Positions 1 to 60,447 of a stretch of 60,447 nucleotides of DNA are shown here, in pieces (the stretch's first letter is position 1; the number at the start of each line of letters is the position of its first letter). Origin of the DNA: a virus; the IMG/VR virus record IMGVR_UViG_3300017773_000009, positions 1 to 60,447 of that record, one strand, 5' to 3'. The notes under the pieces were generated by a model that was not told where the DNA came from, searched no databases, and saw only the letters and a list, made by a program, of their open reading frames with translations. Made by a program: the position numbers and the translations under genes.

Positions 1-118
1 CATATTTAGTTCCAAAGTATATAGCATCAGCTATAGTCATTCCCTTAACAAAGAAAGACTTCTCTGACCTATCATACATTCCATCTATAGATATTGGATT
101 GTATCCTCTTTGTATAAG
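1..118. repeat. 118-bp block identical to the window end (60330..60447). Circular-assembly overlap or permutation junction, not a physical terminus.
   Basis: catatttagttcc...cctctttgtataag occurs at both ends base for base. It lies inside an uninterrupted reading frame. Confidence 0.95.
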
Positions 119-5818: not shown

Positions 5819-6679
5819 TTAATTATAATTAAAGAACCTAAATGGCTCTGAAGTATTGTTAGTGTCCTTGTTAAAAGCACCTGCCTGTGCCATAGAACTT
5901 AAAGCATTTAATCCAGCAGTAGTCATAGCTGCTCCCTGTTGTGCTCCTGCTTGTAATTGAGCTGCACCAAACATTGCTTGATTCTGCATCCCTGACAACG
6001 CTACTTGTTGACCAAACTGTGCTTGACCTGTAGCTGCCTGAGAATATAAATTAAATAATTGTTGTTGTTTAGCCATCTCACTTTGTTGTTCCATACCTCT
6101 CTGACCACCTAATGTTTGGAAGGCTCCTTGTAACTGTGCAGACAATCCTTGTTCCATTTGCATTGCTCTTGGCAAGAAGTTTAAATACTCCTGCTCTTGT
6201 TTTTCCATCTCTGCTTCAGCTAAAGCTCCTGTTTGAGAAGCTTGCCCTGATAATGTTTTGACTAGTCCAGCAACATCTCTAGTTCCACCAACCTTAGATA
6301 ACCTTGCTATATTCTGCTCAGTCCTTTGTAAACCCTCAGTTAGTTTTTGTTCTGCATAACCAGAAAGAGGAGCTCTCCTCCTATCTTCCATCTCTTTTTG
6401 TAGTGTCTGTAGTCTAGATGTTCCTGACTCAAAAGCACCAGAAGCTAAATCCATAGCTTGTAAAAATTCTTGTGGTGTTTTATATGTGGGTATATTTTTA
6501 AACTGCTCTTCTGCTAAATCACCAAACTTATCTGCTCTTGCACTTGCATCTTGCTGCATTTGCTGCTGCATTGCTTGTTGGTCTCTAAACTGTCTAGCTC
6601 CTTGCTTCCTAGCTTTACTGGATTGATATGCTCCAAGTAAGGCTGAACCTCCAGCTATTATTGTAGTTGCTGCTGCCAT
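5819..6679 (-). CDS. Gln/Ala/Gly-rich low-complexity virion internal protein (286 aa)
   Basis: Complete ORF with QQAMQQQMQQ and AQLQAGAQQGAAMTTAG-type low complexity, tightly packed with its neighbours. Confidence 0.5.
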   Translation of the reverse strand: MAAATTIIAGGSALLGAYQSSKARKQGARQFRDQQAMQQQMQQDASARADKFGDLAEEQFKNIPTYKTPQEFLQAMDLASGAFESGTSRLQTLQKEMEDRRRAPLSGYAEQKLTEGLQRTEQNIARLSKVGGTRDVAGLVKTLSGQASQTGALAEAEMEKQEQEYLNFLPRAMQMEQGLSAQLQGAFQTLGGQRGMEQQSEMAKQQQLFNLYSQAATGQAQFGQQVALSGMQNQAMFGAAQLQAGAQQGAAMTTAGLNALSSMAQAGAFNKDTNNTSEPFRFFNYN

Positions 6680-7116: not shown

Positions 7117-8127
7117 CTATCTTCCATGCCTACCACTAAACACATATCCTAACCCTGTAGCAAACATGTGTGCAGCAGACTTTAGGCTATTCCTTAATTT
7201 AACTATAAGGGTTTGTGAACGAATATCATCACCACTCATTAAGCCACCCTTACTAGCAATGTTTCTATATATTGGTGCATAGTACATACCCTCCTTCTCT
7301 TTATAATCTCTAAGGAGGTTATTTGTTGATTGATTTCTCTCGTTCTCTATGTTCATCACAACCCATGGAGATGTTCCACTTATGGATATGTTCTTGTATA
7401 TCTTTGGTTGAACAGGTGCCACATTAGAAACATAATGTATTTCGCTATAATCTTCATCAGGATTATTGGCACTTAAATTTACAATTCTTATATTCGTTAC
7501 ATTTGCAGTTAATATTCTTCTCCTAATGTAGAAAGCTGCGTTACTACCTATTGCCTGAATCACACCTCTGTAATTTCCATTTCCACTAACTCTAATAGAA
7601 TTATATGCTGCACCTGCTATACCCATATCAGCAAACCCCTCAACTTGTGAATAGTTAGATACAGTAAAGCTAATTTCTACATAATCTCCTGCACTAATAC
7701 CTCCATTACCTAATCTAATTACAGAATAAAAATTATCAAAAATATTACCTGTGTTGTCATACTCAAAAGAATCATCAGTTATATTGTTAATAAATCCAAG
7801 GTCAACAGTTGGATTACCTCCTCCCTGATAAGAACTAGGTGTTATAGCTGTAGCATTAGAAAGATTCTCAACCTCTTCTTCTGGTGAGTTGTAAAAATTA
7901 AACTGTTGATTATTAAAGAACTCGTTGTGTGTTCCTGAATCAAACATCTTGTACATGCCACCTTGATGAAAAGAAAACATTCCCTGACTACTATTTTGAT
8001 ACATCTCAGGATAAAAAGAATAGAATGTTGTCCACTTATTTAACCTTTCATTAAAAGCTAATGTCTGTGGTTTTACAGCCCTACCCCTATAAGGAAATGT
8101 TCTTGGTTTTGATAAACTTGCTCCCAT
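7117..8127 (-). CDS. Tail-associated structural protein (336 aa)
   Basis: Complete ORF sharing one base with the stop of the 1732-aa gene (coupled). Beta-rich N/S/G composition. Confidence 0.45.
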   Translation of the reverse strand: MGASLSKPRTFPYRGRAVKPQTLAFNERLNKWTTFYSFYPEMYQNSSQGMFSFHQGGMYKMFDSGTHNEFFNNQQFNFYNSPEEEVENLSNATAITPSSYQGGGNPTVDLGFINNITDDSFEYDNTGNIFDNFYSVIRLGNGGISAGDYVEISFTVSNYSQVEGFADMGIAGAAYNSIRVSGNGNYRGVIQAIGSNAAFYIRRRILTANVTNIRIVNLSANNPDEDYSEIHYVSNVAPVQPKIYKNISISGTSPWVVMNIENERNQSTNNLLRDYKEKEGMYYAPIYRNIASKGGLMSGDDIRSQTLIVKLRNSLKSAAHMFATGLGYVFSGRHGR

Positions 8128-28353: not shown

Positions 28354-28638
28354 CTACTCTTTTTTATTTGCGAACTTTTCTGCAAAACCTGCACTGTATG
28401 TACCATCATCAGACTCTATCTCCTCACCATTGAGTTGTGCTTCTAACTTAGCAATATCTCCAATAATCTTTTGAGCATCTTCAAAGCATTCTCTCTTTGC
28501 TTTAGCAGCGTTACGAGCTTTATCATCTTGTAACTCTTCTCTATCTAATGGTCTTTCAATCTCTTCAATAAGAATGTCTACACTCTTCTTGGCAGCTTGA
28601 ATTAACCTAACTATACTTTCTTTTGTGTAATTATTCAT
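28354..28638 (-). CDS. Small helical acidic protein (94 aa); small-terminase role possible by position only
   Basis: Complete ORF upstream of terL. No diagnostic motif recognised. Confidence 0.3.
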   Translation of the reverse strand: MNNYTKESIVRLIQAAKKSVDILIEEIERPLDREELQDDKARNAAKAKRECFEDAQKIIGDIAKLEAQLNGEEIESDDGTYSAGFAEKFANKKE

Positions 28639-29249
28639 TATACTCCTACATGTATTAGTTCTGGGTCAAGAACTCCAGTAATATCTTCGTTCTTCATCCT
28701 TAAGTATTCAACCCCATCAATACTCATTGAGTAGTCTGATAGTTTTTTGTAAGCAACTAAATCGCCAACCTTGAATCCTTCTGAGTGTTTATTTGTATGT
28801 CTAACCCATGCACAACCTTTCATTTCGTCTGGTTCTGATTTTAACCACAAGCCACTTGATGTTTTACATGTCTCTTCAGAGAAGTATGCCCTCTCTAAGA
28901 ATACATAATCCTGAATCATTTCTATATCCCCATCTAATTCTTTCTTGCAGTATATGTGTTGGTACTTCATTTCTGCATACTCCTTACCCTCGTAATCAAA
29001 GTGATTATCTGGTTGACAGATAAAGTGATGAACAAACACCCTGTCTCCCTCCTCTACCTCAACATCAAAATCTTTTAGGTGACCAGTTAGTTTAGCAGGA
29101 ATCCTCCTAACTACAGCATCTTGGTTTGTATGCTTTAAAATATCCCAGCTTCCAGCTTGATAGAGTGTTACTTCAGATTTTGTTTCTGCGATGTCAGACT
29201 TATCTACAAACTCTAACAAACATCTATTGTGTAGTAGTTTATAGTTCAT
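28638..29249 (-). CDS. Tandem GroES/Cpn10-like co-chaperonin (203 aa, two Cpn10-like halves)
   Basis: C-terminal half KTSSGLWL...KGCAWVRHT...FKVGDLVAYKKLSDYSMSIDGVEYLRMKNEDITGVL parallels GroES KSAGGIVL...RGEVLAVG...VKVGDIVIF...IDNEEVLIMSESDILAIV. N-terminal half LLHNRCLLEFVD...ETKSEVTL...VEEGDRVFVHHF...YEGKEYAEMKYQHIYC repeats the pattern. Confidence 0.6.
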   Translation of the reverse strand: MNYKLLHNRCLLEFVDKSDIAETKSEVTLYQAGSWDILKHTNQDAVVRRIPAKLTGHLKDFDVEVEEGDRVFVHHFICQPDNHFDYEGKEYAEMKYQHIYCKKELDGDIEMIQDYVFLERAYFSEETCKTSSGLWLKSEPDEMKGCAWVRHTNKHSEGFKVGDLVAYKKLSDYSMSIDGVEYLRMKNEDITGVLDPELIHVGV

Positions 29250-31787: not shown

Positions 31788-31830
31788 TTACCAACAAACA
31801 TTACACAATTTACCACAAATTACCACATTT
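31788..31830 (+). repeat. Four phased TTACCAC(A)-type repeats (DnaA-box-like) in the 0.9-kb non-coding region
   Basis: ttaccaacaaac, ttacacaa, ttaccacaaa and ttaccacattt start at 31788, 31801, 31810 and 31820. TTTACCACA matches the relaxed DnaA box TTWTNCACA at 8 of 9 positions. Confidence 0.4.
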
Positions 31831-31993
31831 TGCTAGGTCTGGTATCTAGTAATGTTCACTTTTCAAACTTTAACTTTCAAAATCTGACGTTTTTAGACAA
31901 TTTCAGCACGACATTTTTGATGATTTTGGTGCCAATTTGATATGTTTTTGAAATTAATTTGTATCTAGTAAATGAATTTTTATTTAAATTTAT

Positions 31994-32025
31994 TTGGAAA
32001 TTAAAGTTCAATGTTTGTATATTTG
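31994..32025 (+). promoter_or_regulatory. Candidate promoter (TTG-N21-TATATTTG) for the ribozyme-punctuated early operon
   Basis: TTG at 31994-96 and TATATTTG at 32018-25. About 360 nt upstream of the first ORF. Confidence 0.5.
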
Positions 32026-32279
32026 CCCCAACAATCGTTCATTGACATACTGAATTACTGCGACATCAACGCTCACTAGGTTGCATACCTAGTATACTTG
32101 GCTCTCGTTCTCCTAGATTACCCTCGATGTGATATTGATAGGAAATAGGATAAGATAGACTCCAGATGATATGCGAACATCTCTAATCAAGTAAGGCGTA
32201 GTAATTTAGTTTTTGGGAAGCAGAGTAATCTAGCAAGTAGGTGGTACTACTGCGATGTGGTTACTCTAGGGTTTAGGGA

Positions 32280-32363
32280 AATTCGACAATGTCGAAACCT
32301 ACCTAGTTACTAGTGTAGGTCTAGTAGAGGTGGCTACTCTACTACTGATGAGACAAGCCAATT
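32280..32363 (+). ncRNA. Hammerhead ribozyme HH1, type II topology (stem II open)
   Basis: UGUC (32290-93), GAAA (32294-97), and stem III ACCUAC/GUAGGU with an inner CUAG/CUAG helix. GUC cleavage triplet with C17 at 32321. Stem I hairpin UAGUAGAG-loop-CUCUACUA (32322-44), CUGAUGA (32345-51), then GACA (32352-55) pairing back to UGUC. Confidence 0.8.
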
Positions 32364-32384
32364 AACCCCTAAATTTATTCTATT

Positions 32385-32714
32385 ATGAATTATTACGAAT
32401 TATCTCAAGAGATTTACTATGCTATCAAGAAAGGATTGCCAGTTGTAGCGATATATCATCACGATAACAATGGTACGTTGAAAGGTACAAAAGACTTTCA
32501 CCTACCTAGTCCACAAGTTTCTGGGACATATGCCCAGCAAGATACTTACGCTAGGATGAGAGCATCATCTCTGACTGATGAGATTAAAAACTATGTAAAC
32601 TCTAGTGAACATGAGGTAAGTGTTTACAAGATTTACACTATGGTTGACGATGATTGTTCTAATGAAACAAACAAAGAACCTCTTTTATATTCTTATTTAA
32701 ACAAGAGAAAGTAA
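32385..32714 (+). CDS. Early small protein (109 aa), unknown function
   Basis: ATG follows the ttaacccctaaatttattctatt leader. The stop TAA (32712-14) lies inside stem I of HH2. Confidence 0.65.
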   Translation: MNYYELSQEIYYAIKKGLPVVAIYHHDNNGTLKGTKDFHLPSPQVSGTYAQQDTYARMRASSLTDEIKNYVNSSEHEVSVYKIYTMVDDDCSNETNKEPLLYSYLNKRK

Positions 32715-32774
32715 TACTGATGAGACTTGATGAGTCGAAACATCCCTCACTATCTGGTGGGGAATGTCTATTAC
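32711..32774 (+). ncRNA. Hammerhead ribozyme HH2, type I
   Basis: Stem I GUAAUA (32711-16) pairs with UAUUAC (32769-74). CUGAUGA at 32717-23, stem II GACU-UGAUG-AGUC, GAAA at 32737-40. Stem III is 11 positions with one C.A mismatch and one U.G wobble. GUC triplet; cleavage after C32768. Confidence 0.9.
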
Positions 32775-32803
32775 AAATTATTAACCCCTAAATTTATTTT
32801 ATT

Positions 32804-33103
32804 ATGGTATTTGAAGTATTAAGAGAGAAACTAACCACTAGAGGTGGAGGTATCGAAATTGACTTAACTGAATTTGGTTACGATGACCAGAGAATGACTG
32901 CCTACCAGAATTATCTGGGAGGAGGTATGCTTGGTGGTATTTCTAATGATTGCACAATATCAGATTGGCAAGAGAGTCTTCACTTGAGACATATATCAGA
33001 TATGTTGAGAATGGAGTATGCCAACAGACTAGGTAGACTACTGGATGTAGACTCTGATGTTCTATTAAAAGAACTAGAGGTTAGACCAGTTAGTGCCTAC
33101 TAG
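32804..33103 (+). CDS. Early small protein (99 aa), unknown function
   Basis: Leader ttaacccctaaatttattttatt. The stop TAG sits immediately 5' of HH3 stem I. Confidence 0.65.
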   Translation: MVFEVLREKLTTRGGGIEIDLTEFGYDDQRMTAYQNYLGGGMLGGISNDCTISDWQESLHLRHISDMLRMEYANRLGRLLDVDSDVLLKELEVRPVSAY

Positions 33104-33167
33104 AGTATTACTGATGAGACCTTATAGGTCGAAACACTACTGATGTGAGTCAGAGGTTTCTAATACT
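33104..33167 (+). ncRNA. Hammerhead ribozyme HH3, type I (C.U mismatch at the 15.2-16.2 position)
   Basis: Stem I AGUAUUA pairs with UAAUACU. CUGAUGA at 33111-17, stem II GACCU-UAU-AGGUC, GAAA at 33131-34. Stem III has a GUGA tetraloop and is homologous to HH6, with compensatory changes. The triplet is UUC (C17 at 33160), so the pair closing stem III next to the cleavage site is broken. Confidence 0.72.
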
Positions 33168-33186
33168 AACCCTAAATTAAATTACT

Positions 33187-33363
33187 ATGGACTACAAAAT
33201 TAGCGAAAGACTAAAGATGACAATAGGAAACATTAAACACCAACAGAAGAAAGGTTTTTGCGATGATGAAGATTTAACTTTACTAGAGTACGAAATCAAG
33301 AAACTAGAAGAGGTACTCGAAAGGGTAAAAAAACTAGAAAAGAGTATTACTGATGAGACTTGA
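33187..33363 (+). CDS. Early small protein (58 aa; below the ORF-track cutoff)
   Basis: ATG at 33187 after ctaaccctaaattaaattact. Translation MDYKISERLKMTIGNIKHQQKKGFCDDEDLTLLEYEIKKLEEVLERVKKLEKSITDET*. The last 7 codons are encoded by HH4 stem I, the CUGAUGA core and part of stem II. Confidence 0.6.
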   Translation: MDYKISERLKMTIGNIKHQQKKGFCDDEDLTLLEYEIKKLEEVLERVKKLEKSITDET

Positions 33364-33398
33364 TGAGTCGAAACCACTAGAGATAGTGGTCTAATACT
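33343..33398 (+). ncRNA. Hammerhead ribozyme HH4, type I (fully canonical)
   Basis: Stem I AGUAUUA pairs with UAAUACU. CUGAUGA at 33350-56, stem II GACU-UGAUG-AGUC, GAAA at 33370-73. Stem III ACCACUA-GAGA-UAGUGGU is perfect. GUC triplet; cleavage after C33391. Confidence 0.92.
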
Positions 33399-33417
33399 AA
33401 CCCTAAATTAAATTACT

Positions 33418-33654
33418 ATGAACTACATAGAAGAAAAAGTTGTTAAGATGAAGTCTAAATCTAGGAGAAAAGAATACCTAGATAAGATACAAGAGAGAAC
33501 ACAGAATGATATTGGTAATGTCCTCTGGGCATTGGATATGAATCATCCAGAATCGTATGGTTGGCTACTAGGAGAGCAAGTAACTCAAGATGACTTGTAT
33601 GCTCTAGAGGAAGAACTAGATACGATAAACTCTCTATACATCTACACTGAATAG
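33418..33654 (+). CDS. Early small protein (78 aa), unknown function
   Basis: Same leader motif. The last base of the stop TAG is the first base of HH5 stem I. Confidence 0.65.
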   Translation: MNYIEEKVVKMKSKSRRKEYLDKIQERTQNDIGNVLWALDMNHPESYGWLLGEQVTQDDLYALEEELDTINSLYIYTE

Positions 33655-33708
33655 CAATACTGATGAGACCTAATTGGTCGAAACTACTCCTAGTGAGTAG
33701 TCTATTGC
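33654..33708 (+). ncRNA. Hammerhead ribozyme HH5, type I
   Basis: Stem I GCAAUA pairs with UAUUGC. CUGAUGA at 33660-66, stem II GACC-UAAUU-GGUC, GAAA at 33680-83. Stem III ACUACUC-CUAGU-GAGUAGU. GUC triplet; cleavage after C33702. Confidence 0.9.
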
Positions 33709-33741
33709 AATAATGCAATTTAACCCTAAATTTATTTTATT

Positions 33742-34599
33742 ATGACAACGAATGAAAGAATCTTTCAAGTATTAGAAGAAACTAAAACTAACTGGAATGT
33801 AAACAAGTTACCTCTGGTAGCAATAGATTCAGCTACAGACTACAAGTTTGAGACTGAAACCTATGGTTTGTTTCGCTCTGATAATGGTAACTGGCTAGGT
33901 AGCGTAGGTAATCGCTATGAGGTTATGCCTAATTCAGAACTAGCTGAAATTATGGTTGGTATCCAAGCTAGGTTTGGTGGAGAAATACTTGGAGGTAGTT
34001 TACAAGGAGGTAAGAAGATATACTATCAGATGACCTTACCTAAAGAGAGAATTGGTAATGATGTTATCAAGCGTAACATTACTTGCCTTAACTCACATGA
34101 TGGTACATCTAGTATTGGCTTTGGCTCAACAAATGTTGTAGTATCTTGTAGCAATATGTTTCACAGAGCAATGAAAGACCTATCTAAATTCAGACATACA
34201 ATGTCTGCTAGTGAGAGGTTAGCTATTGCAGTTGATGAATTTCAGAAAGCACTAGATACAGACAGAGCGTTAATGGATGACTTTCAGAAGATGTCTCAAA
34301 TACAGATAGATGAGACTATCCTAGAGAAAGTTATGGGTAGCGTATTCAATGTAGATATGAAGAGCAAGGTCTCTGATAACTCTACCAGAAAGCGTAACCA
34401 GATTTCTCAATTTGAGACTGCTCTAGCTAAAGAGACTAGAGAGAAAGGTGGTACACTATGGGGTCTGTTTAATGCAGTAACATACTATACTAATCACCTA
34501 GAGAAGAAGCAAGACCTTAACTACTTGATGTATGGTAGTGGCTACAAGAAGAACTTGACTGCCTTTAATACTATCAAGAAGTATATGGAGACTGCCTAG
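33742..34599 (+). CDS. DUF932-family protein (phage/plasmid-associated, 285 aa)
   Basis: Layout and motifs (CLNSHDGTSSIGFGSTNVVVSCSNM...; GGTLWGLFNAVTYYTNH) are typical of the DUF932/DUF945 family found on mobile elements. Confidence 0.6.
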   Translation: MTTNERIFQVLEETKTNWNVNKLPLVAIDSATDYKFETETYGLFRSDNGNWLGSVGNRYEVMPNSELAEIMVGIQARFGGEILGGSLQGGKKIYYQMTLPKERIGNDVIKRNITCLNSHDGTSSIGFGSTNVVVSCSNMFHRAMKDLSKFRHTMSASERLAIAVDEFQKALDTDRALMDDFQKMSQIQIDETILEKVMGSVFNVDMKSKVSDNSTRKRNQISQFETALAKETREKGGTLWGLFNAVTYYTNHLEKKQDLNYLMYGSGYKKNLTAFNTIKKYMETA

Positions 34600-34660
34600 T
34601 AATGCTGATGAGACCTCAATGGTCGAAACACTACTGCTGTGAAGCAGGGGTGTCCATTAC
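34599..34660 (+). ncRNA. Hammerhead ribozyme HH6, type I
   Basis: Stem I GUAAUG pairs with CAUUAC. CUGAUGA at 34605-11, stem II GACC-UCAAU-GGUC, GAAA at 34625-28. 11-position stem III capped by a GUGA tetraloop. GUC triplet; cleavage after C34654. Confidence 0.9.
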
Positions 34661-34686
34661 AAATGTTTAACCCTAAAAAAAATATT

Positions 34687-34884
34687 ATGGAAAAAGAATT
34701 AAGAAAGTTATCTGTATGGCTAAAGTCAGCAGACAAGTATGAATTTGGATATGACTCTACATATGATGGCATACTAGAAGAAAAGATTGCACAATCTCAA
34801 CAAGAGGTGTGTCATAAGATTGGAGAGTATATCGAGGAGATACTAGAGATTAAGAAGAAAGAAGATACAAGAGATTGTATTTAG
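34687..34884 (+). CDS. Early small protein (65 aa; start moved from 34639 to 34687)
   Basis: The listed 34639 start lies inside HH6 stem III. ATG 34687 follows tttaaccctaaaaaaaatatt, as at the other cistrons. The stop TAG (34882-84) lies 5 nt before pistol P1. Confidence 0.6.
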   Translation: MEKELRKLSVWLKSADKYEFGYDSTYDGILEEKIAQSQQEVCHKIGEYIEEILEIKKKEDTRDCI

Positions 34885-34888
34885 GGGA

Positions 34889-35045
34889 AGTGGACTACGC
34901 CACTATAAATAGAATTTAAGCGTAGAGCGTTTTATGGTACACTAGATGTAGTAAGTAGGAGGGTAATAGGGAGTTAGCCCCTCGTAAAAATCATCCCCAA
35001 AGGCAATAGTCAATGTGCTTTACATCAGTGTATCATAGAGGTATT
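34889..35045 (+). ncRNA. Pistol ribozyme Pi1 with a long P3 insertion
   Basis: P1 AGUGG/CCACU. Loop CUACG pairs with CGUAG (34921-25) as a pseudoknot. Linker AUAAAUAG-AAU-UUAAG, then A-GCG. P3 UUUUAUGGUA (34930-39) pairs with UAUCAUAGAG (35031-40) and encloses an extended helix. G35041-U35042 is the cleavage dinucleotide. P2' AUU pairs with AAU. Confidence 0.8.
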
Positions 35046-35068
35046 ATTAACCCTAAAATTAAATTAAA

Positions 35069-35344
35069 ATGGCAAAAGTAAAAATTATGCAAAGGTCTGT
35101 GTACCACAAGTACGCAGAGATAGAGATTGAAATTCCTATTTTACCAAATGGTTTTGCAGATGTTGACGTTCAAGAATATCTGCGTAATAACGAACACCTG
35201 TATATTGACAAGATAGACAAAGCTATTAGCGAATCTAACTTACAATATGGGAGTGGTGTAGAGGAGTACAGAGGTATGTGTGAACTAGAGGCTGACTCTG
35301 AATGGAGGTATGAATTTGAGAGTGGATATGGTGGACATCTCTAA
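35069..35344 (+). CDS. Early small protein (91 aa), unknown function
   Basis: Leader ttaaccctaaaattaaattaaa. The stop TAA lies 2 nt before Pi2. Confidence 0.65.
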   Translation: MAKVKIMQRSVYHKYAEIEIEIPILPNGFADVDVQEYLRNNEHLYIDKIDKAISESNLQYGSGVEEYRGMCELEADSEWRYEFESGYGGHL

Positions 35345-35345
35345 A

Positions 35346-35463
35346 ACTGGACTATGCCAGTATAAATAGGAATTAAGCATAGAGCGTTTTATGGTATGTT
35401 AGTGGTGTATAAAATGATAAAGTCTGAGGTTATCAAAACACACTAGCATATCATAGAGGTTTT
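35346..35463 (+). ncRNA. Pistol ribozyme Pi2 with an extended P3
   Basis: P1 ACUGG/CCAGU. Loop CUAUG pairs with CAUAG (35378-82). Linker AUAAAUAG-GAA-UUAAG, then A-GCG. P3 UUUUAUGGUA (35387-96) pairs with UAUCAUAGAG (35449-58). G35459-U35460, then P2' UUU. Confidence 0.8.
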
Positions 35464-35487
35464 ATTAACCCCTAAAACTAAATTACA

Positions 35488-35838
35488 ATGGGATACAGAA
35501 GTGATGTTATCTTTGGAGTAAAGAAGAATTTCAAAGATAAAATTGATGCAATTATCAAGGAGAATTTTACAGAAGATTGCTGGAAGGTTACCAACAAAAA
35601 AATCAATGATGATGATTACAATCGAGGAGACTGGGTTGTATATTCTGCTCAATACCTAAAGTGGTATGATGACTACGAGGAGGTAAGGGCTATAAACAGA
35701 ATCATAGATACTATTGACCATCAATCTAACTCTAAAGACTGCTTTATGGTATGTCTTGGAGAGGATGGAGAGATACACGATGATATTGGAGAGTGGTATG
35801 ATTTCGTTGAACATAAACACGAGATAAAGTTATGGTAA
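35488..35838 (+). CDS. Early protein (116 aa), unknown function
   Basis: Leader ttaacccctaaaactaaattaca. Sequence MGYRSDVIFGV...KWYDDYEEV.... Confidence 0.65.
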   Translation: MGYRSDVIFGVKKNFKDKIDAIIKENFTEDCWKVTNKKINDDDYNRGDWVVYSAQYLKWYDDYEEVRAINRIIDTIDHQSNSKDCFMVCLGEDGEIHDDIGEWYDFVEHKHEIKLW

Positions 35839-35852
35839 GATTTATAGAGATT

Positions 35853-35951
35853 ATGGCACAATTATTCTGGTTACTATTTCAAGCAGTATTTATAGTAGCT
35901 TTTTTCAGCACCATCTTGTATGGATTTATCATGCTTTTGCTTGGTAAGTAG
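35853..35951 (+). CDS. Possible 32-aa hydrophobic (single-TM) micro-ORF
   Basis: MAQLFWLLFQAVFIVAFFSTILYGFIMLLLGK*. The last base of the stop TAG (35949-51) falls in Pi3 P1. No conserved leader upstream. Confidence 0.3.
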   Translation: MAQLFWLLFQAVFIVAFFSTILYGFIMLLLGK

Positions 35952-36014
35952 TGGACTACACCACTTTAAAAAGAACATTAAGTGTAGTGCGTTCCCCCTC
36001 TGGGGGAGGTTGTT
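35950..36014 (+). ncRNA. Pistol ribozyme Pi3 (compact, canonical)
   Basis: P1 AGUGG/CCACU. Loop ACUACA pairs with UGUAGU (6-bp pseudoknot). Linker UUAAAAAG-AACA-UUAAG, then GCG. P3 UUCCCCC-UCU-GGGGGAG. G36009-U36010. P2' UGUU pairs with AACA. By recollection it aligns nearly position for position with the published env25 pistol (CGUGG UUAGGG CCACG UUAAAUAG UUGC UUAAG CCCUAA GCG UUGAUC..GAUCAG GU GCAA). Confidence 0.88.
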
Positions 36015-36036
36015 TAACCCTAAAATTATATTTAAT

Positions 36037-36264
36037 ATGAAAACAAATGATTCAAATGTTATGGAATTTCTAGATGAGGTTGTAACACAAATGTTAGAAC
36101 TAGAGTTTGGAGAATACTATAAAAACACTGGCTTTGATAATGTTGAGGATAAAACTTACACCTTAACTGATGAAGCACAAGATTTCTACAACGAAAGATA
36201 TGATGAAGTCGAAACATTATTTAGTAACTTAATTTTAAACCCAGAAGAAGATGGAAAACAATAA
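36037..36264 (+). CDS. Early small acidic protein (75 aa; start moved from 35920 to 36037)
   Basis: The listed N-terminal extension is translated through Pi3. ATG 36037 follows ttaaccctaaaattatatttaat. Confidence 0.6.
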   Translation: MKTNDSNVMEFLDEVVTQMLELEFGEYYKNTGFDNVEDKTYTLTDEAQDFYNERYDEVETLFSNLILNPEEDGKQ

Positions 36265-36535
36265 ACTAATAGCAGAATTTATGGAGTTACCCACAGAAAT
36301 AATGGGTGCAAAAGAGGTTGTTTATGGTATGAATCACGATGATTGGTATACTGCCGACAACTTAAACTATCATCTGTCTTGGGATTGGCTTATGCCAGTA
36401 GCAAACGAGATTATAAAGTCAAGAGATGAGCAAAATGCTGATTGGGACTTGACTGATTTAAAATATGCTTTGCAGACTACAAATATTGAGTTAGTATATA
36501 AAGCAGTAGTAGAATTTATTAAAGAAGAGGGGTAA
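36251..36535 (+). CDS. Early protein (94 aa), last gene of the operon
   Basis: NKLIAEFME...YHLSWDWLMPV motif. Overlaps the upstream ORF by 14 nt. The stop lies inside a terminator hairpin. Confidence 0.6.
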   Translation: MENNKLIAEFMELPTEIMGAKEVVYGMNHDDWYTADNLNYHLSWDWLMPVANEIIKSRDEQNADWDLTDLKYALQTTNIELVYKAVVEFIKEEG

Positions 36536-36551
36536 TACCCTCTTTTTTTTT
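36524..36551 (+). terminator. Intrinsic terminator ending the ribozyme-punctuated operon
   Basis: GAAGAGGG-GUAAUA-CCCUCUU followed by a U-tract. Confidence 0.8.
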
Positions 36552-36585
36552 GCTCAAAAGTGTAGGATGTGAACTTTATTTTTAT

Positions 36586-36593
36586 TAGATTTG
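36586..36593 (+). promoter_or_regulatory. Candidate -7 box TAGATTTG for the recombination/replication operon
   Basis: Matches TAnnTTTG. No clear -33 TTG. Confidence 0.3.
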
Positions 36594-36643
36594 TAACCTA
36601 TATTCATGACAATTTTGTCAATTAACCCATTAAACTATCGAAT

Positions 36644-36826
36644 ATGAGAATACATCAAAAGGATATGATAGATACTGCAACGAAGTATCTTCTTAACATT
36701 AACAGAACTTTAGATAAAGTAGAATATAAGAAAGGGAAAGTCCTTTTTGCTTATAGTGGAGACCATGTCTACCTCATGGATTTCTCTACAAATAAACTGA
36801 ATGTAATCAAGGTAGAACTTAACTAA
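36644..36826 (+). CDS. Hypothetical protein (60 aa)
   Basis: Preceded by the degenerate leader ttaacccattaaactatcgaat. Confidence 0.45.
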   Translation: MRIHQKDMIDTATKYLLNINRTLDKVEYKKGKVLFAYSGDHVYLMDFSTNKLNVIKVELN

Positions 36827-43413: not shown

Positions 43414-43485
43414 AGACCTATAGTTAAATGGATATAATAAAACTCTCCTAAAGTTTAGTTGCAGGTTCGACTCCTGCTAGGTCTA
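43414..43485 (+). tRNA. tRNA-Arg (anticodon CCU)
   Basis: Acceptor AGACCUA/UAGGUCU. U8. D arm GUUA-AAUGGAUA-UAAU with GG and A20. Anticodon arm AAACU-CUCCUAA-AGUUU (U33, CCU, A37). 4-nt variable loop. T arm GCAGG-UUCGACU-CCUGC. Discriminator A. No encoded CCA. Confidence 0.85.
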
Positions 43486-43499
43486 CAAAATTATTTAAT

Positions 43500-50091: not shown

Positions 50092-50480
50092 GCTCTTCTT
50101 ACTCTCTTAGCTATTCTCTTTGTGTATTTTGCTTTTTGACTACCAGACTTAGAGGCACTCCTTTTCCTCTTATTAGTGGCTGCCTTTTCTGATTTACTTA
50201 AAGATTCTCTAACCTTCTTTGGTAAGTATCTTCCTCTCTTAGCTCTTGGTTTTTTCTCATCACCCTTAGTGACATAACCCCATTTTTGTTTTGTCCACTT
50301 AGACAGCTTGTTACTAGATGATTTCTTACCCTTGTAACCACCACCAGCTTTCTTATACCTAGCAACAGCTAATTGTGCCTTACGAGCAGACCACTGTCCA
50401 GCTCTACCACCCTTACTACCAGCCTTTACTCTGGCAACAATTCTTTTCCATAATCCTGGTTTTGTTTTCTTAGCTGACAT
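50088..50480 (-). CDS. Highly basic Lys/Arg-rich protein (130 aa)
   Basis: GLWKRIVARVKAGSKGGRAGQWSARKAQLAVARYKKAGGGYKG. K/R-rich throughout. Confidence 0.5.
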   Translation of the reverse strand: MSAKKTKPGLWKRIVARVKAGSKGGRAGQWSARKAQLAVARYKKAGGGYKGKKSSSNKLSKWTKQKWGYVTKGDEKKPRAKRGRYLPKKVRESLSKSEKAATNKRKRSASKSGSQKAKYTKRIAKRVRRA

Positions 50481-52462
50481 TATTTTATTATTACTTTAGT
50501 AGTTATACTCAAATCATTTTTATTTACTTTAATTAAATAAAAACCTCTCTCTAACTCCACGTCTGAAATATTTTTATCTTTATAGACAATCTCTCCTAAA
50601 TTATTATAAACTATAATATCTACTATAGATTTAAAACTAATCAATCCACTTGAAGGATTTGGGAATGGTATTATTCCCATTCTTTCAAACGAAGTTATAT
50701 CTGTAGGACCTGACCAGCCATCTACACAGTAGGCATATAATCCATCACACCCATCATCCCATGTTGTATTACAGCAGTATGGGTCTACCTGTATCACCCA
50801 CTCAAAACATGTATTAGGAATGTAGTATACATTACCAGAATTACAGCCAGCAGAATAATAACAGGATGAGTCTGACATATTAGCTTCTGAATTATAGTTA
50901 ATAGCGTTGACATCAGTGCAGCCAAACAAAGGATAAACACAAGACCCATTATCAGTATTTGCATTATCATTATAATTAATTGCTGTGCTGTCTGTACATC
51001 CATAATAAAAAGGTATGCAATTACCATTATCTATATTTGCTTCTGAGTTATAATTAAACATTGTGTTATCTGTGCAACCATAAACAACGTCTATGCAAGA
51101 GTTGTCGTTAACATTAGCTAGTGGATTGTAGTTAAATGCTTCAGAGTCAGTACAACCTAAGACTGGTAGTATGCAACTACCATCATCAGTATTAGCTAAA
51201 GAATCATAGTTAAGAGCCTCAACAATCATACACCCCTCTATTACAGCTATACAAGTGTCAGGTACATTTGCATTAGGATTGTAGTTAAATGCTAGTTCAT
51301 TCATACAGCCTTCTACAACAGCAATACAAGAATTTTCTAGCTCTACGTTTGCCTCAGGGTCAAAGTTTAGTGCTTCTTCATCCATGCAACCTAATACTAT
51401 TAAAGTCTCACAAGTTTCATCGTCAAAGTCTGCGTCTTCATTGTACTCTAAATATATTGGATTAGTGCAGCCTAAAACATAATAGCAGCTTTCATCGTCT
51501 GTATTGGCAAGAACATTATAATTTAATGATGTATCATCTGTGCAACCATAAATTCTTTCTATACACTCATCACCACAATAAGGCATTCCATTAACTATTA
51601 CAAAAGGAACTATAGGACTAGCAAATCCTCCTGGAGCATCAATGGCTACGTGCTCCTCAGAGTATACACTATACCCACATTGTACTGATGTAAACTGAGA
51701 CTGTTGCGTTATGTTAAACTTAACACTAATAGGTTCTGATATGCTTAACTCAAATGTAAACGTAGTATCAAAACCATCATCAAGAGTAAATATGCCTAGA
51801 AAGTTATTGCCTTGAAACACTTGTAGATATGCTCCAGCCCAACCATTACCAGCTAAATCTGTTAGTTCAAGCGTATGTGTACAACTATCTATTAGTATAT
51901 CTGTGTTAGCTGAATCTATATAATTATAAGCTAAAGAGTCAGTACAGCCAAATACTTTTTCTGTAAAACACATCCCTGTATCTATTGTTGCTATTGGTAG
52001 GAACTCTAAAAAGCTATCATCCATGCAGCCAAATATAGGTGGAGGGGGAGCACAATCTTCTACTGTAAATCCATGATAAGAAGCAAATCCAAAATTGGCT
52101 GAATCCATTTCAACTAAAGTATCATTACATCTTACTAAATAGTATGAGCCATCTTGTCCACCCCATAAACTGCCTTGCATACCATCTCCATATCCATCAC
52201 TTATCACAAAATCGTAATCACCATTAGGTAGGCATAGCTGTGTAACTTGAGGTGAATAATCAACTATATTATCGTAGGGACCACCAGTAACTACTGTATC
52301 TAAGTTATCATCTAATATAGCCCAAGAAGTTTCTTCTGGGTATTGGTCTGGATTAATAACTATATCTAGATACGTACCATTAGGACATTGAGCAAATGCT
52401 GAAGCCATGGTAAAAACCACAACCATTATAAAAGCGTATAAAAATTTAGTAAAGTTGTTCAT
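50480..52462 (-). CDS. Secreted Cys-repeat protein with a T9SS (Por) C-terminal sorting domain (660 aa)
   Basis: Signal peptide MNNFTKFLYAFIMVVVFTMASAFAQ. 11 copies of G-C-(T/M)-D-x3-(A/L)-x-N-(Y/F)-(N/D)-x3-A-(N/D)-x-D-(D/N)-x-S-C. The C-terminus IIPFPNPSSGLISFKS...YNNLGEIVYKDKN...ERGFYLIKVN...TTKVIIK is typical of T9SS CTDs. Confidence 0.75.
   Translation of the reverse strand: MNNFTKFLYAFIMVVVFTMASAFAQCPNGTYLDIVINPDQYPEETSWAILDDNLDTVVTGGPYDNIVDYSPQVTQLCLPNGDYDFVISDGYGDGMQGSLWGGQDGSYYLVRCNDTLVEMDSANFGFASYHGFTVEDCAPPPPIFGCMDDSFLEFLPIATIDTGMCFTEKVFGCTDSLAYNYIDSANTDILIDSCTHTLELTDLAGNGWAGAYLQVFQGNNFLGIFTLDDGFDTTFTFELSISEPISVKFNITQQSQFTSVQCGYSVYSEEHVAIDAPGGFASPIVPFVIVNGMPYCGDECIERIYGCTDDTSLNYNVLANTDDESCYYVLGCTNPIYLEYNEDADFDDETCETLIVLGCMDEEALNFDPEANVELENSCIAVVEGCMNELAFNYNPNANVPDTCIAVIEGCMIVEALNYDSLANTDDGSCILPVLGCTDSEAFNYNPLANVNDNSCIDVVYGCTDNTMFNYNSEANIDNGNCIPFYYGCTDSTAINYNDNANTDNGSCVYPLFGCTDVNAINYNSEANMSDSSCYYSAGCNSGNVYYIPNTCFEWVIQVDPYCCNTTWDDGCDGLYAYCVDGWSGPTDITSFERMGIIPFPNPSSGLISFKSIVDIIVYNNLGEIVYKDKNISDVELERGFYLIKVNKNDLSITTKVIIK
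50858..51550 (-). repeat. Nine tandem ~25-27-aa GCTD...NYN...AN.D.GSC repeats (coding)
   Basis: Repeat glycines at residues 306, 331, 358, 385, 410, 436, 462, 488 and 514 of the 660-aa protein. Two more copies lie at residues 144-194. Confidence 0.85.
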
Positions 52463-60100: not shown

Positions 60101-60447
60101 CCTTCAATCTCTATCTCTTGTTCTTCTTGTACAACAACAGGGGTATTGACTAAATTACCAAAGTCATAACCAATACTATACTTAAACGCACCATCTCCTA
60201 ACTGAATTGTGCTGAAGTAATTGTTCATACCTTGGTCAGTTACTATCGCACCAGTGGTAGGTTCCATCTTACCAATATTCTCACCACTTGTATATATCAT
60301 ACCAACACTGTGAGCTACAGACTCTTGACCATATTTAGTTCCAAAGTATATAGCATCAGCTATAGTCATTCCCTTAACAAAGAAAGACTTCTCTGACCTA
60401 TCATACATTCCATCTATAGATATTGGATTGTATCCTCTTTGTATAAG
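54121..60447 (-). CDS. C-terminal part of the giant 3318-aa virion/ejection-type polyvalent protein (continuation of 3748..1)
   Basis: The frame is open from the stop at 54121-23 to the window edge. The listed start M at 60408 is internal (residue 1224). HExxH motif LIHEVQHYIQD at 59623-59637 is followed by YGEVESRNVERR. The protein is long and largely helical. Confidence 0.85.
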   Translation of the reverse strand, partial: LIQRGYNPISIDGMYDRSEKSFFVKGMTIADAIYFGTKYGQESVAHSVGMIYTSGENIGKMEPTTGAIVTDQGMNNYFSTIQLGDGAFKYSIGYDFGNLVNTPVVVQEEQEIEIEGPIRPKSSVIGVRANLDNLRLDNYILAKQMTKENQDPLLIKRQTGWELGKDGQWRYELMPLSLKKDIESIKSGDIVKLTELANLGELTELYGTGDFAGTLQDINKINVLVKKDSYLQEGEVGGSYNGLYTPDNLPQIVLEVGRGSTEELVRQTLIHEVQHYIQDIENFEGGSSPSSALSEIDSSIAKITREIENSGSITQSEINSLTERRNRLERQASELDNLRKEDGTNVAAYMAYYSNYGEVESRNVERRLNLTEEQRRNALLDMTEDTQEKSIIFTDSSLFTEKLNVKESKLQWSPSKIGRGDRAITERNNIVRDAAEAYYNEEITQEEYLATVNQYSPIKPIIDFIEPAKAEDISTAVGVKSEGKINLQFEEGKSVGLRLDIPAYTNSNIWAITVHEGGTTGAPLSYSNVAKIKNVDFTSNPVVAMNIARHAELKPGGKRMGKATIARMQGEWSPIEGATPQEQGQNAMDFIASIINDDTWSQIGMNPFRHSYFYDRADGMPVLHADEVIQIGGLVYAKNVAKTNPQDKAFEAVEKKTGKTVKFSKMTGWKMMYGRDKGLSSSQITSKYDLLKQMQDSSKKFQIQRELWEKAQQEYNERYDKIKNDPMTFEISSDRLHGETASGKAIKYSEDRSKERSYKFNYLPKSIANIQEIDDVTRITIPRWFFDKSKFYLRNVEGFNPMTGFMKSDFSKDYMDRNGNMPSEFIEDIVIEDIDFKSREPRESKMDMLGDTPQGQPFGLAEVPEGFFERVGYSKPKESKFGGLPIFNLQELEGKLILVVPGDLMGTGVYTGYREGSNIQVDINGGPLFGKKYADKNALWASTTDAAFSSFMNMAYKTKDMYMVIVSQGPISHRGNQEFANLYILELEESIQRGELTKIEAISFINEKINQTTKTGNKRFAKIHGSTINSIEDLRSLLIDNGTYDVRRDFMDSMGAAGVLEVKNPNAKFETGEYKGFPNISKMLDLTLEKSMPLKSENTKNELTKVPRGTIMSVGKIDSQNPRGEQIHPGYPITINGEFLGINTEAGVNISNLMNYALTSEGEQYFEGDTAQRNKKLGGYTKNGALLGAISLRAKESKLPPLQIHMDNIRIQDNGFFSFNGTNAKLQFKKNFTTRGLMSKKTYEASIKKLNETKAKMFDVENIVDKFQIAVEKEYGKELDKETLEAINSSLTGTYELVEMLPPSIQESIVGMRDYIDSLSQHLIDEGMVQGDLEAVVASNIGVYVNRTYDVFENPNYEVAPEVWNNAVYQLRKSYDEMGIELTENAATEILNEVFAEMKGIGNNPLAFFRAKDLLKRDVKSFKRRKDIPTWMRDVMGESKDPVSNFYKTSSKLIHIIEQSKFLSGLREIGFQEGFLSDKYDSQKFPKRISKEESTKYSQYYPLTQGQALYTTPEFAEVIKMFTSEPNQNGMLMQSLMTANYMFKYGATILSVQTHIRNFLSNTLVVGSFGINPFNINSHKYMFDKLKTDGRWNESELRKLIQLGVIRDGAYSGELKAIINDTMGEEIPTTKMFTNKAKLVTQGASNIAQKAYQAEDDYWKIFAFYNLKQDYTKAYPNATEEQIDKMASDDVLNHMPTYSKIPHAIKEIRKFPLVGTFPSFVSEMARNTINHISNTPKMIKSDNEVVSGMGKRRAVGLLTASSLATLIAAAVRNLLPDWDEEKTEALQLEVAPWSRNSDLVPVEFEDGNVYYFDFSSLDPYAHIKKSGKTLFNMVSGEEDSVMEFLRETFDPFLGMEPVTEAILEVNSNRDGYGNPIYNETDDPGSIAVKGFNHIAKVLTPGTVKSFMKMADPDKDLLKELVSTFGGVRISQLNAEKQYYFRVQDAVDDSKLNSRLYYDVAGKDDVSNSQKDNALEKANEKLQETFSTLYNHRVNLEELGMNSNRAYKMTKMPAEKDIYIGKRNQISMYIGQAFPIIPSHRNVSNSELQKVASNLMIAAQLGIVTTSEINSIFRKYVVSDVEREAIQQVSTGDYIYDYELRKVVKKELK
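60330..60447. repeat. Second copy of the 118-bp assembly overlap (identical to 1..118)
   Basis: Exact identity by inspection. Confidence 0.95.

Follow-up and report, generated by a model that had tools for sequence, protein, structure and literature searches.

Hammerhead and pistol ribozymes occupy the non-overlapping gene junctions of an operon in a phage of a likely Bacteroidota host

A first-pass annotation of the IMG/VR virus record IMGVR_UViG_3300017773_000009 (60,447 nucleotides (nt), the whole stretch being hereafter called the window) reported nine self-cleaving ribozyme motifs in an operon of small genes, and we followed it up computationally. The operon is ~4.5 kb long, from promoter to terminator, and it comprises 11 open reading frames (ORFs) rather than the ten or so first counted. 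Six hammerheads (HH1 to HH6) and three pistols (Pi1 to Pi3) are found within 3.7 kb, all on the coding strand and at the positions first reported. They occupy 9/9 non-overlapping junctions, and the two junctions devoid of ribozymes (8/9 and 10/11) are those of overlapping gene pairs, which bears out the arrangement of one ribozyme per gap with two exceptions. A regular-expression scan of the window for Bacteroidota-type promoters revealed one complete promoter ahead of the array and none in the gaps between its genes. A single promoter and a single intrinsic terminator thus bracket the array, as had been proposed.

Just 3' of each ribozyme lies a leader motif, TAACCC(C)TAAA, whose nine exact copies are the only ones in the 60-kb genome (~0.3 copies expected by chance, as estimated from base composition). 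It is located 19-22 nt before the next AUG at all nine sites, 5-18 nt past the predicted cut sites of the type I hammerheads and pistols and, after HH1, just past the 3' tail. The features of the operon are as follows (aa, amino acids; R1, a type I hammerhead covariance model described below; L038 and L040, two related contigs).

31993-32025, + strand: Bacteroidota-type promoter, TTTG-N21-TATATTTG, from the regular-expression scan; identical in L038 and L040
32026-32289, + strand: non-coding 5' leader of 264 nt upstream of HH1, with no ORF, ending with GGGUUUAGGG and the palindrome UUCGACA-AUG-UCGAA
32290-32362, + strand: HH1, type II hammerhead, predicted cut after C32321; 36.0 bits with RF02276 (gathering score 37), E = 1e-4 in a permissive Rfam search of the 5-kb region 31800-36800
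32363-32373, + strand: leader motif UAACCCCUAAA, 22 nt before the AUG of gene 1
32385-32714, + strand: gene 1, 109 aa, family F5
32710-32775, + strand: HH2, type I hammerhead, predicted cut after C32768; R1 58.3 bits; stop codon of gene 1 inside the 5' strand of stem I
32804-33103, + strand: gene 2, 99 aa, family F0; leader motif at 32782-32792
33104-33167, + strand: HH3, type I hammerhead, predicted cut after C33160; R1 49.4 bits
33187-33363, + strand: gene 3, 58 aa; leader motif at 33167-33176; last 21 nt overlap HH4
33343-33398, + strand: HH4, type I hammerhead, predicted cut after C33391; R1 69.2 bits, R1 seed
33418-33654, + strand: gene 4, 78 aa, family F6; leader motif at 33398-33407
33653-33709, + strand: HH5, type I hammerhead, predicted cut after C33702; R1 72.2 bits, R1 seed
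33742-34599, + strand: gene 5, 285 aa, DUF932 (PF06067; Pfam 1.7e-29; phrog_1221), family F1; leader motif at 33721-33730
34598-34661, + strand: HH6, type I hammerhead, predicted cut after C34654; R1 53.7 bits; 28 bits with RF00163 (gathering score 34)
34687-34884, + strand: gene 6, 65 aa, family F2; leader motif at 34668-34677
34889-35047, + strand: Pi1, pistol with a branched 111-nt P3 insertion, predicted cut after G35041; RF02679 40.7 bits
35069-35344, + strand: gene 7, 91 aa, family F7; leader motif at 35048-35057
35346-35465, + strand: Pi2, pistol with a 72-nt P3 hairpin, predicted cut after G35459; RF02679 40.6 bits
35488-35838, + strand: gene 8, 116 aa, family F4; leader motif at 35466-35476
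35832-35951, + strand: gene 9, 39 aa, hydrophobic; 7-nt overlap with gene 8 and no ribozyme at that junction
35950-36014, + strand: Pi3, compact pistol, predicted cut after G36009; RF02679 54.4 bits, E = 3.7e-7
36037-36264, + strand: gene 10, 75 aa; leader motif at 36015-36024
36251-36535, + strand: gene 11, 94 aa, family F8; 14-nt overlap with gene 10 and no ribozyme at that junction
36529-36551, + strand: intrinsic terminator closing the operon

The five type I hammerheads were collected with R1, which was built from 16 sequences, 2 from the window (HH4 and HH5) and 14 from relatives; HH2, HH3 and HH6 are not among its seeds. Over both strands of the window and with filters off, R1 gave exactly five matches of 49.4-72.2 bits, all on the + strand between 32710 and 34661, the next one scoring 17.7 bits. 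Their core CUGAUGA...GAAA is invariant, their stem I is open, and the triplet is GUC in 4/5 window copies and UUC in HH3. In an alignment of 59 distinct type I hammerheads, taken from the window and from metagenomic loci, pairing extends to 98.3% of cells, and compensatory changes are seen at 15/17 pairs; this covariation score was reached by 0/500 shuffles, and slid registers did not come close either. Stem I is always 6 base pairs (bp) long, with A residues on its flanks.

On the Rfam hammerhead models, HH2-HH6 reached 21-33 bits, all below threshold. RF00163 (type I, clan CL00010) reported HH6 alone, and the other four elements matched RAGATH-1-hammerhead or Hammerhead_3 at 21-33 bits. The RAGATH-1 hammerhead entry (RF03152) has a gathering score of 56.3 bits, including a 5' accessory hairpin, and the scores obtained here were 21.3-33.4 bits; the putative RAGATH-1 5' hairpin falls in coding sequence, and HH2-HH6 were not filed under RF03152. 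HH1, the only type II element of the window, falls 1 bit short of the gathering score of Hammerhead_II (RF02276) and has the structural hallmarks of this type, namely a complete CUGAUGA/GAAA core, an 8-bp stem I, a GUC triplet, closed stems I and III with an open stem II, and the type II pseudoknot between UGGCU (loop I) and AGCCA (3' tail). Its three-stem fold is the minimum-free-energy structure of 32290-32355, and it is conserved in L038 and L040.

All three pistols pass the gathering score of the Rfam Pistol family (RF02679, 34.5 bits), and those of the relatives score 42-66 bits. A gathering-score Rfam search of the whole window reported one tRNA and three pistols, and nothing more. In Pi1 and Pi2, P3 is enlarged by insertions (111 and 72 nt, respectively), and for this reason the Rfam alignments stop at a false 3' end; the insertions fold with z = -4.5 (Pi1) and z = -5.9 (Pi2), and the G^U sites are then at G35041 and G35459. 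The three G^U steps are at 35041/2, 35459/60 and 36009/10, where the first-pass annotation had placed them. In an alignment of 11 pistols, 98% pairing is found for P1, the pseudoknot and P3 taken together (94.8% for the pseudoknot, 100% for P1 and P3), in keeping with the pistol architecture, in which the P1 loop pairs over 6-7 bp with the stretch separating P2 from P3, and 9/18 pairs show compensatory changes, including four in the pseudoknot.

The lengths of pistol P3 vary widely, and that of the Pi2 orthologues is short in L024 and L040. We also observed that the branched, ~110-nt P3 insertion of the Pi1 type (34930-35040 in the window; 2533-2641 in L001; also in L018, L024, L029 and L040) harbours 7 compensatory pairs among six relatives. 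It could represent an extra functional domain, for instance a protein-binding or regulatory one.

On the evidence of covariance models, covariation and conservation in relatives, the nine ribozyme sequences are real and under purifying selection, and all nine are predicted to self-cleave, generating 2',3'-cyclic phosphate and 5'-OH ends. The hammerhead cut sites at C32321, C32768, C33160, C33391, C33702 and C34654 follow from the model alignments, in agreement with the first reading. The distances of 26-39 nt from cut site to AUG are likewise correct; that of HH1 is 63 nt. The HH1 product leader of 63 nt retains the 8-bp stem I hairpin. The statement that each element starts at, or within 5 nt of, the upstream stop codon has to be amended for HH4, whose start precedes the gene 3 stop codon by 18 nt. 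At this junction, the coding sequence of gene 3 (33343-33363) runs through the CUGAUGA core of HH4 and terminates within the loop of stem II (stop codon at 33361-33363); several further junctions have their stop codon in the 5' strand of stem I. Given these positions of the stop codons, a terminating ribosome would transiently block ribozyme folding.

At least five related metagenomic phage contigs harbour the same kind of array, with up to 10 ribozymes. L001, a 16.6-kb IMG/VR contig with a DUF932 protein 92% identical to that of the window, has ten ribozymes within 4.9 kb, of which six are type I hammerheads and four are pistols. Further arrays were obtained from a metagenome pattern scan, in L018 and L029 (TARA Oceans), L024, L038, L040 and L006; in that of L040, a single type II hammerhead is accompanied by six of type I and by three pistols. 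L038 and L040 share with the window the promoter, HH1 and the 3' portion of the 5' untranslated region (UTR). An element identical to HH5 precedes the DUF932 gene in L001, L018, L024, L029 and L038, and the corresponding element of L040 is a variant that differs in stem III.

The most informative result is that different ribozyme classes are found at orthologous junctions. Between the DUF932 gene and gene 6, a type I hammerhead is present in the window and in L001, L024 and L040, and a pistol in L018 and L029, with clearly orthologous flanks (C-termini ...KKYMETA and ...KKYMEIA, N-termini MEKELRKLS and MEKELRRLS in the window and L029). Three more positions differ between the window on the one hand and L001, L018 and L029 on the other: upstream of gene 1 (type II hammerhead versus type I hammerhead), upstream of family F4 (pistol versus type I hammerhead) and upstream of family F6 (type I hammerhead versus pistol). 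In L001, a pistol ends the operon at the place of the window's terminator. As read from these comparisons, the conserved property is the presence of a self-cleaver at each junction and not a given fold, and the occupation of orthologous junctions by different classes suggests that cleavage itself is under selection.

The window, L001, L018/L029, L024/L038 and L040 are not alike in the order and content of their genes, and breakpoints of homology are found at ribozyme/leader or leader/ORF borders (32359, 35078 and 35465). These two observations indicate that the repeated ribozyme-leader units also behave as recombination joints. One might go further and consider a DNA-level role as the chief one, the units serving as recombination linkers for swaps of accessory genes and self-cleavage being secondary or a hitch-hiker, in the manner of the promoter-stem-loop cassettes of T4-type phages or of integron cassette boundaries. 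The shuffled gene order and the breakpoints at leader edges agree with this idea, and so do two junctions of the window that share the same 29-nt product leader, from the cut site through the ATG. For recombination, however, sequence identity suffices, which leaves the invariant catalytic cores and the compensatory changes in all helices and in the pistol pseudoknot unexplained, as well as the strict coding-strand orientation and the replacement of one catalytic class by another. We therefore regard linkage as the chief function as decidedly improbable.

Some further loci deserve mention. L025 (OGWK01000017.1, 2040-5601), which is unrelated and G+C-richer, harbours seven type I hammerheads in 3.5 kb, each preceding its own conserved short leader, AUAAAAACUCNAAGCU-AUG, i.e. 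the same design in another lineage. In L038 (8320-8500) and on the minus strand of L040 (~5900-6090), a 31-codon micro-ORF is found between type II and type I hammerheads, the latter having a large stem III insertion in L040. In 185,579 reference genomes, a search for the hammerhead-plus-leader pattern yielded single matches only, in Legionella, Saccharibacteria and one unclassified metagenome-assembled genome. Those of Legionella parisiensis and L. pneumophila subsp. fraseri (L164 and L165) are single type I hammerheads followed ~13 nt later by UUUAACCCUUAAC. Among 50,697 phage records, blastn found no sequence similar to the operon region.

The ends of the window (1-118 and 60330-60447) are identical over 118 bp, from which we take it to be a complete phage genome of 60,329 bp, either circularly assembled or terminally redundant. 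Its G+C content is 34.9%. The minus strand codes for the portal protein, the large terminase subunit and two giant virion proteins (2095 and 1732 aa), and the plus strand, from 36.8 kb, for replication and recombination proteins, namely a PDDEXK nuclease, a primase-helicase and PhoH. The ribozyme operon is the first rightward transcription unit, at the divergent junction of the structural and replication modules. Its designation as early follows from this position at the structural/replication switch alone, since the crAss-type DFDxD motif of virion RNA polymerases, sought in the 2095- and 1732-aa proteins, was not found. A second promoter box, TAGATTTG, is present at 36586-36593, downstream of the terminator. 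Among the array genes, Pfam and PHROG scans recognized DUF932 alone, and the literature on this domain gave no functional lead.

The terminase shares 35-38% identity with its equivalents in podophages of Flavobacterium, Cellulophaga and Maribacter. A Shine-Dalgarno sequence was found at 0 genes of the phage genome, and promoters of the Bacteroidota type, TTTG-N(17-23)-TAnnTTTG, are located at its module starts. A 660-aa ORF (50480-52462, minus strand) harbours a weak type IX secretion C-terminal sorting domain, the ORF at 7117-8127 (minus strand) a crAss muzzle-protein C-terminal domain and a 203-aa ORF (28638-29249, minus strand) a Cpn10/GroES-like domain. The latter three domains would fit a podophage of Bacteroidota with a distant relationship to crAss-like phages. 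From the terminase, the lack of Shine-Dalgarno sequences, the TAnnTTTG boxes and the sorting and muzzle domains, the host is most likely a member of the Bacteroidota and probably a flavobacterium. The phage also codes for a tRNA-Arg(CCT) (43414-43486), found in the Rfam search.

The standard leader that follows the ribozymes, UAACCC(C)UAAAWUWWAUU, is A/U-rich and without a Shine-Dalgarno sequence, and the late genes of the phage have a similar start region, UAACUUAAUUUAAUUA. Because it is unlike host-type promoters and resembles the late-gene start regions, we read it as the Shine-Dalgarno-less translation-initiation region of the phage. The leader might instead be a phage-specific promoter from which each gene is transcribed alone, the ribozymes merely trimming read-through RNA. 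Its motif is loosely similar to the T3 promoter core, ATTAACCC, and degenerate versions of it precede some ribozyme-less genes (36644, 39713 and 40701). Yet no phage RNA polymerase was detected in Pfam and PHROG scans of the long ORFs outside the structural-gene block, and the two giant proteins, which lack DFDxD, correspond in PHROGs to virion structural proteins only. Host-type TTTG/TAnnTTTG promoters, unlike the leader, are present at the expected module starts, the distance from motif to AUG is fixed at 19-22 nt, and a similar motif of other lineages precedes a Shine-Dalgarno sequence. Transcription from the leader was thus rejected as a highly improbable explanation.

The motif is not enriched 3' of pistols among 122 pattern matches in IMG/VR (7 hits versus 12 in control regions), a further point against a promoter. 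We also discarded the notion of the leader as a general companion of pistols on these counts; it is lineage-specific. In genuine pistols of unrelated phages, the cut sites tend to be ~20-45 nt upstream of a Shine-Dalgarno sequence and ATG, as read by eye from the listed sequences.

The 264-nt 5' leader that HH1 would release as a separate RNA has a near-identical counterpart in L040, and some of it is replaced in L038, its 3' part being kept in both. Its predicted fold (32030-32290) is no better than those of shuffled sequences (z = -0.15), and we rejected this 5' UTR as a structured non-coding RNA. GGGUUUAGGG is complementary to the CCCUAAA of the leader motif and, like the palindrome next to it, is conserved in L038 and L040. 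In the predicted structures, the palindrome and GGGUUUAGGG could form a switch over the first cleavage.

With a single promoter and terminator, structural selection on identified ribozymes, their placement and the interchangeability of their classes, all computed here, we infer that the polycistron is cut in vivo into gene-sized mRNAs, the ribozyme-leader unit acting as a class-independent punctuation or insulation module. We assign a probability of approximately 0.6 to this reading. The host RNA polymerase would transcribe one ~4.5-kb unit, starting at the promoter (31993-32025) and ending at the terminator (36529-36551), and the nine ribozymes would fold and self-cut while the RNA is being made. 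Each gene, or each overlapping and translationally coupled pair, would be freed as its own mRNA, the short stem I (6 bp) and P2 (3-4 bp) letting the cleavage products part. The 3' end of such an mRNA would be a compact folded ribozyme bearing a 2',3'-cyclic phosphate, and its 5' end would consist of a 5'-OH, 5-18 nt and then the standard leader 19-22 nt ahead of the AUG. Every small accessory gene would thus obtain an equal start context and equal types of ends regardless of its neighbours, which would benefit its expression. As a side effect, the repeated units would provide crossover points for gene-cassette shuffling among related phages.

The first-pass annotation had proposed monocistronic mRNAs, or a setting of their stability and translation. 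This proposal fits the anatomy of the operon and gains strength from the class swaps, and we retain it in conditional form.

The predicted end chemistry, a 2',3'-cyclic phosphate with a 5'-OH, would also suit a host RtcB-type ligase, which could re-join the products into circular or spliced RNAs, a possibility considered by Perreault et al. 2011 (PMC3088659). No such products were found in that study, and a circularized cistron would lose its free 5' leader. RtcB, RNA ligase and polynucleotide kinase had no match in PHROGs (eight large ORFs and the array genes) or in Pfam (the array genes and the long ORFs outside the structural-gene block). Re-ligation appears extremely improbable to us.

Several observations weigh against the punctuation of the polycistron by cleavage. 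In L001 and L040, the gene 7 orthologues lack a preceding ribozyme, which indicates that a ribozyme is not obligatory for every gene. The palindrome UUCGACA-AUG-UCGAA (32270-32296) competes with stem II and the GAAA core of HH1 in the predicted minimum-free-energy fold. The UUC triplet of HH3 comes with a C15.2/U16.2 mismatch beside the cleavage site, which may weaken this ribozyme; its L040 counterpart has GUC. The P2 helices of Pi1 and Pi2 are very weak, with ~3 A-U pairs plus G/A. The type I hammerheads fall below the Rfam gathering scores, and R1 was built from the same family, so that there is some circularity in the scores of its two window seeds (69.2 and 72.2 bits). Furthermore, the predicted unpaired probability of the start regions is similar before and after cleavage (0.40-0.74 versus 0.47-0.85), and the present results do not tell benefits to stability, translation and insulation apart. 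With accessibility about equal, cleavage is not obviously required to unmask the ribosome site, and we did not retain unmasking as its role; insulation, standardization and end protection would be favoured instead.

The unaltered accessibility would also agree with cleavage that mainly tunes decay, through per-cistron half-lives or a glmS-like destabilization via the 5'-OH product, and thereby fixes stoichiometry or timing. Differential stability is among the roles proposed in a review (PMC6765202). The 5' structures are unequal, with the stem I hairpin after HH1 and a refolding hairpin after HH5, and the spread of pistol P3 lengths is wide. That classes with different product structures interchange at one junction argues, however, against finely tuned, junction-specific ends, and the uniform leader speaks for standardization rather than differentiation. 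On balance, we find decay tuning unlikely. As for the refolding hairpin, we observed that in the 3' product of HH5 (33703-33720) the 3' strand of stem I can pair with downstream sequence in a 6-bp hairpin, AUUGCA-AUAA-UGCAAU, conserved in every relative. It would lie at the new 5' end of the mRNA of DUF932, the longest array gene. The hairpins at the 5' ends of the HH1 product (8 bp) and the HH5 product (6 bp) suggest some attention to 5' ends.

An extension of the punctuation reading, which we put forward tentatively, is that of a selected, class-agnostic, plug-and-play module, in which any ORF placed between two units would be automatically released with a standard leader and a structured 3' end, the units also being cassette crossover points. 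In Bacteroidota, which do not use Shine-Dalgarno pairing, the free 5' end beside the UAACCCUAAA leader could then be what makes ribosome loading on internal cistrons possible. If true, this module would represent a natural counterpart, at the RNA level, both of cassette arrays in integrons and of synthetic operons insulated by ribozymes.

Hammerhead, twister and pistol ribozymes are found by the thousands in bacteria and phages, and their role is still largely elusive (PMC6765202). The operon and its relatives amount to a natural experiment, in which all non-overlapping junctions are filled, unrelated folds interchange and the same leader follows each of them. Together, these three features suggest that selection acts on cleavage itself, in combination with a defined 5' leader. 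With nine predicted cut sites in 4.5 kb, the operon is a compact test object. If correct, the punctuation reading would show how a phage of non-Shine-Dalgarno hosts expresses a block of small accessory genes, and it would yield natural, orthogonal insulator parts.

Among known systems, RiboJ insulators and the tRNA punctuation of mitochondrial transcripts similarly rely on structured RNA between cistrons that is cut to give defined, neighbour-independent ends. RiboJ is engineered, and tRNA punctuation uses RNase P and RNase Z, which are protein or ribonucleoprotein endonucleases, rather than self-cleavage. In prophages, multiple hammerheads flank single genes or short gene blocks, and the processing of long phage transcripts into single-gene mRNAs was proposed for them; three such tandem arrangements cleave in vitro and in Escherichia coli (Perreault et al. 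2011, PMC3088659). A 2019 review (PMC6765202) repeats the processing idea and calls the function of bacterial ribozymes elusive. The present operon resembles these clusters, for instance the Agrobacterium tumefaciens triple around ardA, in that two or more ribozymes of the same orientation, on the coding strand, flank single genes or short blocks in phage DNA, and in its proposed role. Unlike them, it combines nine elements of three architectures at all non-overlapping junctions of an 11-gene operon, one shared Shine-Dalgarno-less leader, class replacement in relatives and a Bacteroidota-like host, and it is known from its sequence alone.

According to PMC4604425 and PMC6765202, which summarize Weinberg et al. 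2015, pistols and hammerheads co-occur near each other and near phage genes, and pistols were discovered through their association with ribozyme neighbourhoods. As summarized there, the discovery neighbourhoods of pistol, hatchet and twister-sister are statistical associations, and these summaries describe no one-per-junction array, common leader or class swaps. In the haloarchaeal viruses HF1 and HF2, an early polycistronic transcript has a hammerhead 13 nt ahead of its first ORF, and the mapped 5' end agrees with cleavage (PMC3088659). As in our operon, the cut site is at a short fixed distance before the start codon of an early viral transcript; there, however, a single ribozyme is found at the transcript 5' end and not between cistrons, and the host is archaeal. 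In fungal RNA viruses, hammerheads in 5' UTRs and intergenic regions were proposed to enable translation (bioRxiv 10.1101/2024.05.16.594327). Similarly, a type I hammerhead fills a short intergenic region there, cuts a few nt before the start codon and makes a separate translatable RNA; these viruses differ by their eukaryotic hosts, cap-dependent translation and one or two ribozymes per genome segment.

In full-text literature searches, with Weinberg 2015 and Roth 2014 outside their scope, we found no description of a one-per-junction, mixed-class array, of a shared leader or of class swapping, and nothing tying ribozymes to flavobacterial phages. The novelty claimed at first pass was overstated with respect to clustering and the processing role, both already in PMC3088659; the new points are the density of the array, the class mix, the class swapping and the shared leader. 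As clustering and the processing role were known and the mixed one-per-junction array, its leader and the swapping were undescribed, we consider this operon to be a new and unusually clean form of a known arrangement and not a new kind.

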